DNA of 64,000 nucleotides from Mustelus asterias (taxonomy: Eukaryota), in NCBI RefSeq assembly GCF_964213995.1, contig NW_027590147.1, positions 124,001-188,000 on the forward strand. The letters run 5' to 3'. The translations under genes were made by a program, and so were the position numbers. Numbering within the stretch: the first letter of the stretch is position 1; the number at the start of each line of letters is the position of its first letter. The notes below the pieces were generated by a model that was given only the letters and a program-made list of their open reading frames with translations, was not told where the DNA came from and searched no databases. Positions 35,140 through 40,800 of the stretch are shown here, piece after piece.

Positions 35140-35404
35140 GTAACCCTAACTTCCGGTTTTACAACAACACATCGATTTTGTTATGAAATCAAACTCTGAT
35201 TTTTTTTGTCCCCTGTGGGTTATTCATTTGGTTTCACCCTCAACAAATACGGTGGCTGCGCATGCGTTGTTCCAATTTACCTCAATAAAGATGGCGGATG
35301 CGCATGCGCTTTGCAGTACACGGACCTTTATAAACATGGCGGATTTGAACTCCGGCCTGAAACCATCAGAAGGTCTGAGGAATTTGCTTTGCAAATTGAG
35401 GGAC
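35140..35404. promoter_or_regulatory. promoter segment left of the Gypsy insertion
   Basis: TGCGCATGCG x2 (NRF1), AAGATGGCGG and AACATGGCGG (YY1), ACTTCCGG (ETS). Confidence 0.65.
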
Positions 35405-35691
35405 TGATGCGCGACAATCAAGCACGTGGAACCAAGGCTTCGATATTGAAGGCTTTTATTGTGTAACAACTAACACAAATACACCAGTTCAGACTGAAGG
35501 GGTCCTGCCGGAGCAGAGGGTCTTATACCTCGCCACCGGAGGCGGGGCCCCACCGGGATGTGCCATGATAACACTTATAACAGGTAAACACCCTAACCCA
35601 ACAACATTGTACAACCCCCACAGTAACAACACCCTAGCCCAACAGTAACATAATAACAACCCCCAGTGGTAACCAACGATGGTTCACCACA
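35405..35691 (-). repeat. 3' LTR (287 bp)
   Basis: Matches 39778..40072 except an 8-bp indel and one substitution seen by eye. Confidence 0.95.
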
Positions 35692-35756
35692 TTCACCCCT
35701 CCTTTAAAAACAAAAGGCGGCGGGGTGCAAGAAAAAACAGGTCATATATACAGAAT

Positions 35757-37607
35757 TCACAAGTCCAGACGGTCTGGAGGACCGCACCGACGCTGTGATC
35801 TCCTCAACACCGGTTGCGAAACCGGAGCAGGTGCTTGCGGTGGCGTTCTCTCCAAAACAACGTCCGGCTGTCCCCTCAAGGACTCCCGGGCCGGTTGGCC
35901 CTGGTGAGGCGATGGTGCAGGGGATCCTGGAACCTTCGGTGGTGGCGCCGATCTCCGAGTCTCAGGCAAGCTGTACATGGGAGTAGAACTGTTATGCACT
36001 GGTCCTGGTGCTGACCGCGCCACGTCTGGGGAAGCAATGAGGAGTAGTGGATTCGTGACTGGGGGAATAGGAGCGACAGGAGTTGCTACGTCCCCTGCGG
36101 GCGCCAGGTCTCTAATGGAGACAGTGTCCTCTCGCCCGTCAGGATATGCCACATAGGCATACTGAGGGTTGGCGTGGAGGAGTTGGACCGGTTCGACCAA
36201 GGGGTCGGACCTGCGAGCCCTCACATGTCGCCGCAGAAGGACGGGTCCTGGGTACATCAACCAGGCTGGCAATGAGATCCCCGAGGATGACTTCCGAGGG
36301 AATGAGAACATCCTCTCGTGGGGAGTAGCATTGGTTGCCGTACACAGGAGGGAGCGGATAGAATGGAGCGCATTTGGAAGGACCTCCTGCCAACGGGAGA
36401 CTGGAAGGCCCCTGGATTTCAGTGCCAGTAGGACAGCCTTCCAGACTGTAGCATTCTCCCTTTCCACCTGTCCGTTACCCCTAGGGTTGTAGCTCGTGGT
36501 TCTACTAGAGGCAATCCCGAATGAGAGCAGGAATTGCCTCAAGTCGTTGCTCATGAACGACGAGCCCCTGTCGCTATGAATGTAGCAGGGGTACCCGAAC
36601 AGGGTAAAAAGCTCACTGAATGCCTTGATGACGGTGGCAGTCGACGTGTCCGCACAGGGGACAACAAACGGGAACCGGGAGTACTCGTCTATTATGTTGA
36701 GGAAATAGACGTTCCGGTCCGTTGAGGGAAGGGGGCCCTTAAAATCCACACTCAGCCTCTCAAAAGGGCGAGTGGCCTTGACCAATTGTGCCCGGTCTGG
36801 TCGATAAAAGTGTGGTTTGCATTCTGCGCAAATCCGACAGCTTCTCGTCACTGACCTGACATCCTCCACCGAGTAGGGCAGGTTGCGGGCTTTGACGAAA
36901 TGGTAGAGTCTGGTGACTCCAGGATGACACAGATCATTGTGGAGGGCCTTCAAGCGGTCCTCCTGCATGATGGCGCATGTTCCGCGCGAGAGGGCATCCG
37001 AGGGCTCATTGAGCTTCCCTGGACGATACATAATATCGTAATTATAGGTGGAGAGCTCAATTCTCCACCGCAAGATCTTATAGTTCTTGATCTTGCCCCT
37101 CTGCGTGTTGCTGAACATAAACGCCACGGATCGTTGATCCGTGATCAGGGTGAACCGCTTCCCCGCCAGGTAATGGCGCCAGTGTCTGACTGCCTCCACA
37201 ATGGCCTGAGCCTCCTTCTCCACCGCTGAGTGCCGAATTTCGGGGCCTTGAAGGGTGCGGGAAAAGAACGCGACGGGCCTGCCTGCCTGGTTTAGTGTGG
37301 CGGCTAGGGCGAAATCAGATGCATCACTCTCCACCTGGAAAGGGATGGATTCATCCACCGCGTGCATCGTGGCTTTCGAGATGCCGCTTTTCAAAGCCTT
37401 GAAGGCCAATTGGGCCTCCGGCGTAAGTGGGAAGGTCGTGGACTTGATGAGCGGACGAGCTTTGTCCGCGTAGTTGGGGACCCACTGCGCATAGTACGAA
37501 AAGAACCCGAGGCATCTCCTCAGTGCTTTCGTGCTAGCGGGCAAGGGAAGTTCAGTAAGGGGGCGCATACGGTCTGGATCAGGGCCAATGACCCCGTTTT
37601 CCACCAC
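35757..37607 (-). CDS. pol: Gypsy pol C-terminal part (RT end, RNase H, integrase)
   Basis: DASDF, EKEAQAIV, ITDQ, HPG..CxxC, VDFKGP, IHSDRG, GNGQVER; joined to the upstream ORF by a 1-nt frameshift at about 37670. Confidence 0.9.
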   Translation of the reverse strand: MVENGVIGPDPDRMRPLTELPLPASTKALRRCLGFFSYYAQWVPNYADKARPLIKSTTFPLTPEAQLAFKALKSGISKATMHAVDESIPFQVESDASDFALAATLNQAGRPVAFFSRTLQGPEIRHSAVEKEAQAIVEAVRHWRHYLAGKRFTLITDQRSVAFMFSNTQRGKIKNYKILRWRIELSTYNYDIMYRPGKLNEPSDALSRGTCAIMQEDRLKALHNDLCHPGVTRLYHFVKARNLPYSVEDVRSVTRSCRICAECKPHFYRPDRAQLVKATRPFERLSVDFKGPLPSTDRNVYFLNIIDEYSRFPFVVPCADTSTATVIKAFSELFTLFGYPCYIHSDRGSSFMSNDLRQFLLSFGIASSRTTSYNPRGNGQVERENATVWKAVLLALKSRGLPVSRWQEVLPNALHSIRSLLCTATNATPHERMFSFPRKSSSGISLPAWLMYPGPVLLRRHVRARRSDPLVEPVQLLHANPQYAYVAYPDGREDTVSIRDLAPAGDVATPVAPIPPVTNPLLLIASPDVARSAPGPVHNSSTPMYSLPETRRSAPPPKVPGSPAPSPHQGQPARESLRGQPDVVLERTPPQAPAPVSQPVLRRSQRRCGPPDRLDL

Positions 37608-37656
37608 ATATCCGAGGATGGCTAACCTGCGCGTACGGAATACGCACTTCTCCCTG

Positions 37657-39732
37657 TTATAGGTCAGGTTTCAGGCGAGATGCGGTGCGCAGAAAGTGTT
37701 GGAGATTCGTGTCGTGGTCCTGCTGGTCATGGCCGCAGATGGTGACGTTATCCAGGTACGGGAAGGTAGCCCGCAACCCGTTCTGGTCCACCATTCGGTC
37801 CATAGCACGCTGGAAGACCGAGACCCCATTGGTGACACCAAATGGAACCCTGAGGAATTGGTATAGACGACCATCTGCCTCAAAAGCCGTGTATTGTCGG
37901 TCCTCTGGGCGGATGGGGAGTTGATGGTAGGCGGACTTAAGGTCTATGGTAGAGAACACTCGGTACTGCGCAATCTGATTGACCATATCAGAAATGCGCG
38001 GGAGAGGATACGCATCCAGCTGCGTATAACGATTAATGGTCTGACTGTAGTCGATGACCATCCGAGGTTTGTTCCCGCTTTTGACTACCACGACCTGCGC
38101 TCTCCATGGACTAGCACTGGCCTGTATGATCCCTTCCTTGAGGAGCCGCTGAACCTCAGATCTAATAAAGATCCGGTCCTCAGCGCTGTAACGCCTACTT
38201 TTAGTAGCGATGGGCTTGCAGCCTGGTACCAGATTCTTAAAGAGGGATGGTGTAGTGATTTTCAGAGTGGAAAGGTTGCATGCGGGGCGCTTTGGGCAAT
38301 TTGGAGGCTGCGGCTGATTCCCTACTGCCAGTGAAGGGAGTGGCCCACCGTACTGTAGGATCACACTCTTCATGTGGACCATAAAATTTAGTCCGAGGAG
38401 AATTGGCGCACAAAGGTGAGGTAACACAAGGAGCCTGTATTGCTCGTAAATTGTGCCCTGTACCTCAAGAGTTACCATACATCGTCCTTGGATCGGTACA
38501 GACCGGGACCGTGATGCCATGGAAATTGTCTGCTTGGCAGGGAGAACCCGGAGTCCACACCTTTTAGCAGTTTCAGGGTGTATGAAACTTTCGGTGCTCC
38601 CACTGTCAAACAGACAATTCACAGTTCGACCATTTACCTTTATATCCATCATGGAATTCTCAAGCCTGTGGTGCTTAGTCTGGTCCAGGGAGATCGACGC
38701 CACCGTTGGCCCCTGGGCGTCACTGCATGCCGCCGATGTTGATGCTGAGGACCCCTGCTGGTCGCTCCTAGTCGTCGTGGACCATGATGGCCGCCCCCAT
38801 GAATCGCACGTGGGCGAGGGCGCCAAACGCAGCGACTCCTGGTGGTCTTCCTCCTCCTCCGTCAGCCACGATGGCGCCGTCCTGAGTTCGCACGTGGTCG
38901 GACCTCGTGGGTACTGCAACGCCGAAGGAGATTGTCTCCGTTCTGGAGGGTTACAAGCTGCACTGCCGTTTTTAGACTTCGACCTGCAGACTTTACCGTA
39001 GTGGCCTTTTTTACCGCACTGGCTGCAGGTTGCCATTCTTGCCGGACACTGTTGCCGTGGATGCTTGGCCCCACCACAAAAATAGCATCGCTGGCCACCT
39101 GGAGCTGCCGCCGTCGTCGGATCGATCTGGGAGCGCGGGTTAGCGGGGCAAGGAGGGAGCTGAGCTTGCTCCTGCCACGTTGACTGCACGTGGTCCTCAG
39201 GGTACAGCGCCAAGCTTTTCGACGCCGCTTCCAGCATCTCAGCCATCTCCATTGCTTGGGTCAAGTCGAGGTTCCCCTTTTCCAGCAATTTAAGCCTGAT
39301 GTACGAGGACCCTACCCCTGCTACGAACGCGTCTCGGGCGAGGTCGTACATATATTGTTCGGCTGATACGTCTTTACAATCACAACCCCTGGCAAGCTGC
39401 AGGAGCTCATTGGCGTAGTCCTCCATGGTTTCGCCCGACTGCCGACGTCGTGTAGCGAGGAGGTAACGAGCGTGTATCTCGTTGGGTGGTTTCGTGTATC
39501 GTTTCTTCAGGAGCTCGACGGCCCTCGGGTAAGTGGGAGCCGCACGAATCGCGAGATAAATCGTGTCGCTTACCCTTGCGTGGAGGACTTGGAGTTTGTC
39601 ACTGTCTGTAGTGATAGCTACAGAGGCAGCCAGGTAGTCTTCGAAACACTTCCACCAGTGGTCGAAGGTGTTAGCGGCACCGACTGCACGTGGGTCCAGC
39701 GCCAGACGATCTGGTTTTAAGATCTGTTCCAT
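37657..39732 (-). CDS. gag: Gypsy gag-protease-RT
   Basis: ATG 39732 (MEQILKPDRL); two CCHC knuckles; LFDSGS protease; RT PFG..YLDNV. Confidence 0.9.
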   Translation of the reverse strand: MEQILKPDRLALDPRAVGAANTFDHWWKCFEDYLAASVAITTDSDKLQVLHARVSDTIYLAIRAAPTYPRAVELLKKRYTKPPNEIHARYLLATRRRQSGETMEDYANELLQLARGCDCKDVSAEQYMYDLARDAFVAGVGSSYIRLKLLEKGNLDLTQAMEMAEMLEAASKSLALYPEDHVQSTWQEQAQLPPCPANPRSQIDPTTAAAPGGQRCYFCGGAKHPRQQCPARMATCSQCGKKGHYGKVCRSKSKNGSAACNPPERRQSPSALQYPRGPTTCELRTAPSWLTEEEEDHQESLRLAPSPTCDSWGRPSWSTTTRSDQQGSSASTSAACSDAQGPTVASISLDQTKHHRLENSMMDIKVNGRTVNCLFDSGSTESFIHPETAKRCGLRVLPAKQTISMASRSRSVPIQGRCMVTLEVQGTIYEQYRLLVLPHLCAPILLGLNFMVHMKSVILQYGGPLPSLAVGNQPQPPNCPKRPACNLSTLKITTPSLFKNLVPGCKPIATKSRRYSAEDRIFIRSEVQRLLKEGIIQASASPWRAQVVVVKSGNKPRMVIDYSQTINRYTQLDAYPLPRISDMVNQIAQYRVFSTIDLKSAYHQLPIRPEDRQYTAFEADGRLYQFLRVPFGVTNGVSVFQRAMDRMVDQNGLRATFPYLDNVTICGHDQQDHDTNLQHFLRTASRLKPDL

Positions 39733-39777
39733 ACTCTTTTTTTGTACAGCTGAGAGTTTTCTGTTACACAATAAAAT

Positions 39778-40072
39778 TGATGCGCGACAATCAAGCACGT
39801 GGAACCAAGGCTTCGATATTGAAGGCTTTTATTGTGTAACAATGGAACGACTAACACGAATACACCAGTTCAGACTGAAGGGGTCCTGCCGGAGCAGAGG
39901 GTCTTATACCTCGCCACCGGAGGCGGGGCCCCACCGGGATGTGCCATGATAACACTTATAACAGGTAAACACCCTAACCCAACAACATTGTACAACCCCC
40001 ACAGTAACAACACCCTAGCCCAACAGTAACATAATAACAACCCCCAGTGGTAACCAACGATGGTTCACCACA
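39778..40072 (-). repeat. 5' LTR (295 bp)
   Basis: Minus strand carries TATAAG, an Inr-like TCAGT and AATAAA. Confidence 0.95.
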
Positions 40073-40800
40073 GGGACTGTGGCCGACACCGGGTGTTTAT
40101 AAAGCCTCACCATCCACCCGCAAAGTCCATTTATGTTTCCGGTTTTATTTCGGGCTCTGGATCTGCACTCGGTCTTTGTAAAAATCTCCATTTAAAACCC
40201 GCTCGCTCGAGCTCCTTACCGTCTGCCGCAGGCACTGCGCATGCTCCAGCTCCAACCAGGATGGGGCCGTTAACCTGGGCCTGTTCCCGGGAGGGAGGGA
40301 GGGAGAAGCCCCGCAGCTGCAAACCAGGGAGCTGACAATGATTCTGAAGGGTTTGCGGATCCTCCCCAATCTCCAACCGCCGGCTCCAGCGCTTCACCCG
40401 GTGCTGAAATATTTGCTCCAGCCCCGCCCTTCCTTCACTCCGATTGGTTGGAGGACCAGCCGCTCCCGCTCGGTCCTCCAGCACCGCCCCCTCTTTCTAT
40501 TGGTTCGGAGCTGCCGTCAATCAGTGCCCGGGCATTGTGATGTGGAGCATGCGCAGTGTCATTGCTGTCCTTGGCGCTTGTTTGTCCCGGAGAAGCGGAG
40601 TCAGCGTTAGGCGGTGGCTGGGAGGATTTGGAAACACTTTGTGGATCCGCAAACCCTTCAGAATCATTGTCAGCTCCCTGGTTTGCAGCTGCGGGGCTTC
40701 TCCCTCCCTCCCGGGAACAGGCCCAGGTTAACGGCCCCATCCTGGCTCAGCCACTGGAGGATGGTTCACATCAGAGGATGGGGGAGGGGTCAATAAATAA
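40073..40800. promoter_or_regulatory. CpG-rich ZNF promoter with about 105-bp inverted repeats
   Basis: 40256..40362 is a near reverse complement of 40643..40745; the core has ATTGG x2, GC boxes and GCATGCGCAG. Confidence 0.75.

Follow-up and report, generated by a model that had tools for sequence, protein, structure and literature searches.

The window analyzed here, a 64,000-nt stretch of Mustelus asterias DNA (contig NW_027590147.1), contains a young Ty3/gypsy element of 4,668 bp, which spans 40072 to 35405 of the minus strand. Its assignment to Ty3/gypsy rests on the presence of TG...CA LTRs, a target duplication, a polypurine tract (PPT), and the order protease, reverse transcriptase (RT), RNase H, then integrase; the coordinates of these and the other features are given in Table 1. 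The two LTRs differ by 1 mismatch and one 8-nt deletion. We note that this deletion, near 35470 in the 3′ LTR, takes out most of the leader segment for which pairing with the gag AUG is predicted.

Table 1. Features of the Ty3/gypsy element in the window (window coordinates)
Feature	Positions	Strand	Description
Target site duplication, left	40073..40077	-	GTCCC, 5 bp
5′ LTR	39778..40072	-	295 bp, TG...CA
TATA-like box	39903..39908	-	TATAAG from 39908; TATAA(A/G) lies 32-33 nt before the Inr-like A in three families
Inr-like TCAGT	39874..39878	-	Transcription predicted to begin at 39876
Leader segment with predicted pairing to the region of the gag start codon	39842..39848	-	Present in the minimum-energy and centroid structures; weak across families
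Arm	39827..39841	-	15 nt, AATAAA at 39833..39828; likely 3′ end of the self-primer
Loop	39777..39826	-	Remainder of R, U5, and 1-nt spacer; would be copied into minus strong-stop DNA
Primer-binding position (site)	39762..39776	-	Perfect complement of the arm; no TGG
gag, protease, most of RT	37657..39732	-	Two CCHC-type knuckles by inspection; YLDN motif in RT
RT end, RNase H, integrase	35757..37670	-	No chromodomain; frame broken near 37660 in the window copy
Polypurine tract	35696..35705	-	PPT
3′ LTR	35405..35691	-	287 bp; arm copy at 35468..35454, no downstream partner
Target site duplication, right	35400..35404	-	GTCCC, 5 bp

The element seems to lie within promoter-like DNA that belongs to a cluster of zinc-finger genes with units of 84 nt. 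Directly outside the 5′ LTR, a GC-rich segment (40233-40745) contains perfect inverted arms of 70, 46, and 16 nt, which adjoin a C2H2 zinc-finger-like gene and look like a local inverted duplication. On the other flank, at 35237-35346, there are three short repeats spaced 42-45 nt, and GCGCATGCG comes after two of them. Further away, at 9026-9100, the window contains a tRNA-Lys(CTT)-like sequence that is possibly repeat-derived.

A single A (39777) separates the 5′ LTR from a 15-mer (39776..39762; the site), which is a perfect 15-nt complement of a stretch inside the same LTR (39841..39827; the arm), with 50 nt between the two. The chance of such a complement within one LTR is about 4 × 10⁻⁸, and within the window, only the site and the two LTR arms (three occurrences in all) carry the 15-mer or its complement. 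The first-pass annotation of this DNA, made from the letters alone, had claimed that no TGG-initiated tRNA primer-binding site (PBS) follows the 5′ LTR, that the 15 nt found there instead are perfectly complementary to an LTR stretch holding AATAAA, that the 3′ end of this stretch would thereby be brought to 1 nt from the LTR end, and that no chromodomain is visible. All of these points hold at the coordinates given above: the LTR end lacks a TGG, the spacer is the single A, and a Pfam search of the window element found no chromodomain.

The family to which the window element belongs is abundant in the host genome, with 2,404 candidates, of which 40 were scored (98-100% identity). The pair of arm and site was retained in all 30 loci of this family that were fetched. 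When a second set of 30 loci was collected with a pattern leaving three core bases free, the arm was the complement of the site in 28/28 scorable loci, which covered five core variants. An unanchored pattern, applied without the LTR end, gave 5,337 matches, all of them LTR arms. The window insertion recurs with an identical flank at L002 and L003, on two contigs other than that of the window, which suggests haplotigs or duplication of the segment.

For the sister families, 100 stretches were fetched and 95 parsed, of which 83 belong to a family that we call family B. The cores of arm and site were concordant in 65 of these 83 copies, compared with a mean of 19 and a maximum of 35 in permutations; the mismatch between arm and site, at 2.2% per base, was close to the divergence between LTRs (median identity 97.4%). 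In a poorly resolved FastTree of family B gag-pol, there were at least 7 core changes among concordant copies, and the subfamilies form a ladder, so that crossovers in family B do not show where strong-stop DNA ends. Among 61 copies, only the site differs in 10, compared with 5 and 4 in which only one or the other arm differs, which is a small excess. Fast matched drift of arm and site would fit a cycle in which the primer is copied back into the site each time. We also note that a sister-subfamily element (L024), which is separated from another copy by no more than about 1.2 kb and has the opposite orientation, displays a three-base compensatory swap.

The other Gypsy elements of the host genome served as controls. 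A complement of 6 nt at most was found in 18/18 of their LTR pairs (essentially two families), and TGG sites were present wherever the LTR end could be called cleanly. One of these other families (L321-L340), also young and with open frames near 2,000 residues, has a short stretch of Ts ahead of its TGG site. The best match of a host tRNA to the site was 7 nt in an incomplete sample of 32 tRNA sequences with 10 anticodons. Because the site differs between families and subfamilies and always follows its own LTR, a fixed host RNA cannot explain it. This covariation also speaks against a half-tRNA primer, for which the site would have to match an internal tRNA segment.

Diverged relatives were taken from metagenomes. 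A scan gave 80 loci, and in 40 of them a gag start was present together with sequence upstream of it. After exclusion of 12 in which a usable start could not be recognized, the remaining 28, together with 5 copies from the host genome, collapsed to 19 families at <85% gag identity. The longest inverted repeat before gag, searched for without regard to the position of the LTR end, was a perfect complement of at least 11 nt in 15/19 families. By comparison, shuffled sequences reached 11 nt in 1/380 cases, and cross-family pairs reached 10 nt in 0/342. Where LTR pairs fix the LTR end, the duplex begins 1 nt after its CA. The four families below 11 nt were L107 (in which 15 of 16 pairs match), L039 and L041, which sit close to the beginning of their contigs, and L100, which has no evident explanation. 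Covariation of arm and site in related elements, which had been put forward in the first-pass annotation as a check, is thus seen in 15/19 families against 0/342 cross-family pairs.

The features around the duplex were compared in a set of 20 families picked for showing it, four of which were taken from the 12 skipped loci. CAA directly precedes the site in 18/20 families, RCC follows the arm in 16/20, and AGGY lies downstream in 12/20, with the window family itself having no good RCC...AGGY helix; the distance from the site to the 5′ arm ranges from 21 to 87 nt across families. The hexamer with which the arm ends is AATAAA or ATTAAA for 12/20 families and a different one for 8/20 (GTTAAA, TTTAAA, TTCAAA, TGAAGA, ACAAAT, and others), and pairing is kept in arms without a canonical poly(A) signal (L088, L045, and L110). 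What is constant across families is the geometry of the pairing and the boundary of the arm, and not the poly(A) hexamer. Overall, we consider priming of reverse transcription by the element's own LTR arm very likely.

To place the clade defined by these elements, we used protein relatives, which are labeled ray, hagfish, nematode, crustacean, insect, and sea anemone and are relatives by protein alone; the best match of the window element (78-79%) is in a ray, and viral contigs yielded no relative. Because a chromovirus search of the host genome gave other integrase types, the tree outgroups were instead taken from the protein relatives. In RT-RNase H trees of 88 and 52 rows (near-duplicates thinned, SH-aLRT support only, Tf1 and sushi not among the rows), the clade was monophyletic (SH-aLRT 100) with a long stem (0.52), fell outside the chromodomain-rich group (support 96-99), and grouped with elements including one from the host genome (SH-aLRT 93), which we take to be Mag-like from their motifs, the trees containing no named Mag/SURL references. 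A placement of the clade as sister to the chromodomain-rich group was not rejected by an AU test (p 0.34). The chromodomain (PF00385 and PF24626) was absent from 24/24 clade proteins at E ≤ 0.05 and from all 120 protein matches listed; the clade proteins carry SPWRAQ and mostly YLDN. Because they have no chromodomain and their tree position is outside the core chromoviruses, we did not file the clade as Tf1/sushi. An RT phylogeny had also been proposed in the first-pass annotation, and the one obtained here, which holds no named GyDB or Repbase references, places the clade outside the core chromoviruses.

The position of the arm in the transcript was estimated from promoter-like motifs. In five copies from three host-genome families, a TATA box lies 32-33 nt ahead of an Inr-like A, which in turn lies 43-45 nt ahead of AATAAA, and the sequence between these motifs differs among the three families. 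Because this conserved spacing sets the predicted start at the Inr, the arm would lie at about +36 to +50 (in the window element, the Inr A at 39876 sits 35 nt ahead of the arm), which lends indirect support to the earlier suggestion that the arm is ∼35-40 nt inside the transcript. An internal primer of about 50 nt therefore seems likely from the sequence. Alternatively, as in Tf1, Tf2, and Tj1, which prime with the 5′ end (PMC10085805 and PMC4600332), transcription could start at or next to the first base of the arm, so that the primer would be the first 12-19 nt of the RNA. The sharp end of the complement at 13-15 nt in three host-genome families and the lack of a clear TATA at a fixed distance in the metagenome families favor such a start. 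However, there is no TATA 30 nt ahead of the arm, the TATA/Inr spacing is conserved, and, for the window element, the part of the leader that adjoins the arm has a predicted pairing with the region of the gag AUG; we therefore consider a start at the arm unlikely.

The predicted pairing between leader and AUG is matched by a change in family B but is weak across families (3/19 at p < 0.05, Fisher p 0.01), and the folding energy of the whole leader is unremarkable (z −1.6 and −1.0). The signal lies in the position and covariation of the duplex and not in overall leader stability. In most families, the predicted folds consist of the main duplex and a helix starting at the arm end. A search of 39500..40100 against Rfam gave no match at E ≤ 1, so the region contains no known ribozyme. 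None of the 80 metagenome loci has a poly(A)-tailed contig end. Masking of the 5′ poly(A) signal by the duplex has, in our judgment, about an even chance of being correct and is not obligatory, because AATAAA or ATTAAA ends the arm in only 12 of the 20 families.

We searched the host genome for junctions between LTR and site after which the complement of the leader follows and found 11 among 1,631 junctions in the window family, 3 among at most 2,524 in family B, and 9 in another sister family, family C. Seven aberrant matches were left out: three complex rearrangements (L395, L441, and L443) and four 2-nt extensions (L405, L406, L408, and L409), which were judged uninformative. In six LTRs of family C, the arm is followed by a T, then by the complement of the final 24 bases of the copy's own U5, and then by the loop; these inserts track each copy's own U5 variant with 0-2 mismatches. 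The adjacent internal sequence is absent in 6/6 (i.e. they are solo LTRs), and a perfect 5-bp duplication is present in 4/6. Most simply, minus strong-stop DNA would have terminated at the arm boundary and, after folding back, copied first its own start and then a primer ending in the arm, before it moved to the 3′ R. Alternatively, these junctions could have arisen when the 5′ LTR of a parent folded back in the chromosome and was later transposed again.

Three further copies (L394, L396, and L397) are palindromic inserts of 544-589 bp, in which LTR, A, and site are followed by inverted leader and U3; because they have 5-bp duplications, they were integrated as units. The two halves of the palindrome differ in L396 and L397, and in L393 the complement continues through U3 into the PPT and pol. 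Palindromic inserts require a plus strand ending in site sequence, for which several routes are possible, and do not separate a 5′ from a 3′ primer. In two rearranged copies (L399 and L448), the LTR piece starts within a few bases of the arm end; in L448 alone, the complement stops at the Inr, although this endpoint has a few bases in common with a neighboring repeat. In L391, L392, L404, L398, and L157, the complement reaches 6-10 nt into the leader before the element's own sequence resumes. Short read-throughs of this kind could also arise by template switching at a quasi-palindrome during chromosome replication. Extension of the complement beyond the arm in the 5′ direction, by 6-10 nt and in one case by about 40 nt, is a further point against transcription starting at the arm itself. 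Overall, these rare aberrant insertions appear to preserve the junction between primer and cDNA, and the exact cut site can therefore be predicted.

It is also conceivable that the arm that primes is supplied by a trimmed 3′ R copy, a second packaged RNA, or a short transcript. The complement in the palindromic inserts spans U3 and, in L393, the PPT and pol as well, and the differing halves in L396 and L397 point to two molecules. However, plus strong-stop DNA annealing to the 3′ arm of the RNA would also account for L393, and the strong-stop-like ends at the arm boundary (family C, L399, and L448) look as if the 5′ template had been cut or blocked there, whereas a displaced 5′ arm would have been copied through. 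Further, no more than 21-87 nt separate the site from the 5′ arm, which should pair first. We therefore regard a primer supplied from elsewhere as improbable. A purely regulatory duplex, which hides the 5′ poly(A) signal or start codon while a tRNA fragment or other host RNA primes, would suit the 12 of 20 families with AATAAA or ATTAAA in the arm and the incompleteness of the tRNA sample, but we hold it to be very improbable because the site differs in every family and subfamily yet always tracks its own LTR, begins 1 nt past the LTR end, and stays paired in families without a canonical signal, because the arm-T-cDNA junctions require an arm-ended primer or a two-step history, and because the best tRNA match in the sample is 7 nt.

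The explanation that we favor, with a probability of about 0.7, is that an animal-wide, chromodomain-less Ty3/gypsy clade primes minus-strand DNA with an ∼50-nt piece of its own leader RNA. Arm and site are complementary in the DNA and change together. Transcription would start at the Inr (39876) of the window element, and the arm would fold onto the site. By analogy with Tf1, the element's own RT/RNase H would cut at the arm end, between AAAA and GCC, a point that would coincide with the start of the second short helix (RCC...AGGY) in most families. RT would then extend the arm across the 1-nt spacer and the 49-nt loop; the resulting strong-stop DNA would terminate at the arm boundary and transfer to the 3′ R, as the aberrant copies support, and plus-strand DNA would copy the arm back, a step that is also supported. 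Such copying would rewrite the site in each cycle and lead to fast matched drift. As a proposal only, the duplex would hide the 5′ AAUAAA and leave the copy in the 3′ LTR free for polyadenylation. The first-pass annotation had suggested a self-priming variant of this kind, and the suggestion is supported by covariation among families, by tracking at the level of copies (28/28 and 65/83), and by the arm-cDNA junctions. More tentatively, and with chances that we put slightly below even, self-priming may have originated independently and animal-wide in a non-chromovirus Gypsy lineage, in which an RT cut at an internal helix junction would free a capped ∼50-nt primer in which the poly(A) signal forms the paired 3′ end; one duplex would then start cDNA synthesis, silence the 5′ polyadenylation signal, and be rewritten from the primer in every cycle.

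Self-priming has been described for the Tf1/sushi chromoviruses and Tj1 (PMC10085805, PMC4600332, PMC5341516, and PMC11042837), and the PBS sequence of Tf1 is copied into the cDNA's 3′ end (PMC11042837). Like Tf1/Tf2, Tj1, and Tf1/sushi elements generally, the window clade has a PBS that is complementary to its own LTR and would use no tRNA. RT is reported to cut the primer free in Tf1/sushi and would do so here by analogy with Tf1. Unlike in Tf1/sushi, the arm is predicted to lie ∼35 nt inside the RNA and usually holds a poly(A) hexamer, and the clade lacks the chromodomain and lies outside the core chromovirus group. Tf1/sushi RNA is described as a three-duplex “pretzel”; the predicted folds of the clade show the main duplex and, in most families, the helix that starts at the arm end. 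We conclude that the clade works like Tf1 self-priming, which is a likeness of mechanism and does not amount to membership in Tf1/sushi. Self-priming has also been predicted, from sequence as here, for plant Tcn1 (Ty3/gypsy) and TAR/Houba/Osr-1 (Ty1/copia) (PMC6317226), and these elements show that it can arise in unrelated lineages. Unlike the window clade, Tcn1, which clusters with Tf1/sushi, and TAR, a copia element, are plant lineages, and an overlap with a poly(A) signal is not mentioned for them in the portions of PMC6317226 consulted. Dictyostelium Skipper likewise has a pyrimidine-rich site without TGG after its LTR but, unlike the window clade, is a chromovirus, and no LTR complement is reported for it in the part of PMC5006619 covered. 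The Saci2 clade, with a 4-bp target duplication and a tRNA PBS (PMC12471100), was considered and ruled out as the identity of the element, which has a 5-bp duplication and no tRNA site.

No account of the clade was found in the parts of the PubMed Central and bioRxiv literature covered, which included PMC3601003, PMC13524379, and PMC3587641, and neither PMC6238403 nor PMC12471100, including the supplement text searched, gives a published name for it; Repbase or GyDB entries may already note the complementarity. If our reading is true, a large animal clade with an internal primer represents a further origin of self-priming and presents RT/RNase H with a different substrate. Such a clade would escape control by tRNA fragments, and LTR finders that rely on the PBS would miss or mislabel it. 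Further, a single genome offers >4,000 LTR-site junctions of these types (1,631 and 2,524), among which rare failed copies appear to keep the junction between primer and cDNA.

As in the Mag lineage, the window clade has two CCHC-type knuckles in gag and no chromodomain; we take the two-knuckle gag to be a resemblance to Mag. In contrast to the window clade, the Mag-like element of the host genome has a TGG site and YLDD. Mag-lineage elements fall into A/B/C clades; a PMC6238403 supplement places Cigr-1 under Mag. With regard to the RT active site (at about 37745-37756 in the window), we note that 21/27 clade proteins have Y(L/M/V)DN and not YxDD, with 5 having DD and 1 unmatched, and that the outgroups with a matched motif have DD. 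The equivalent Asp-to-Asn substitution in Ty1 RT retains polymerase activity in vitro (PMC2148107).
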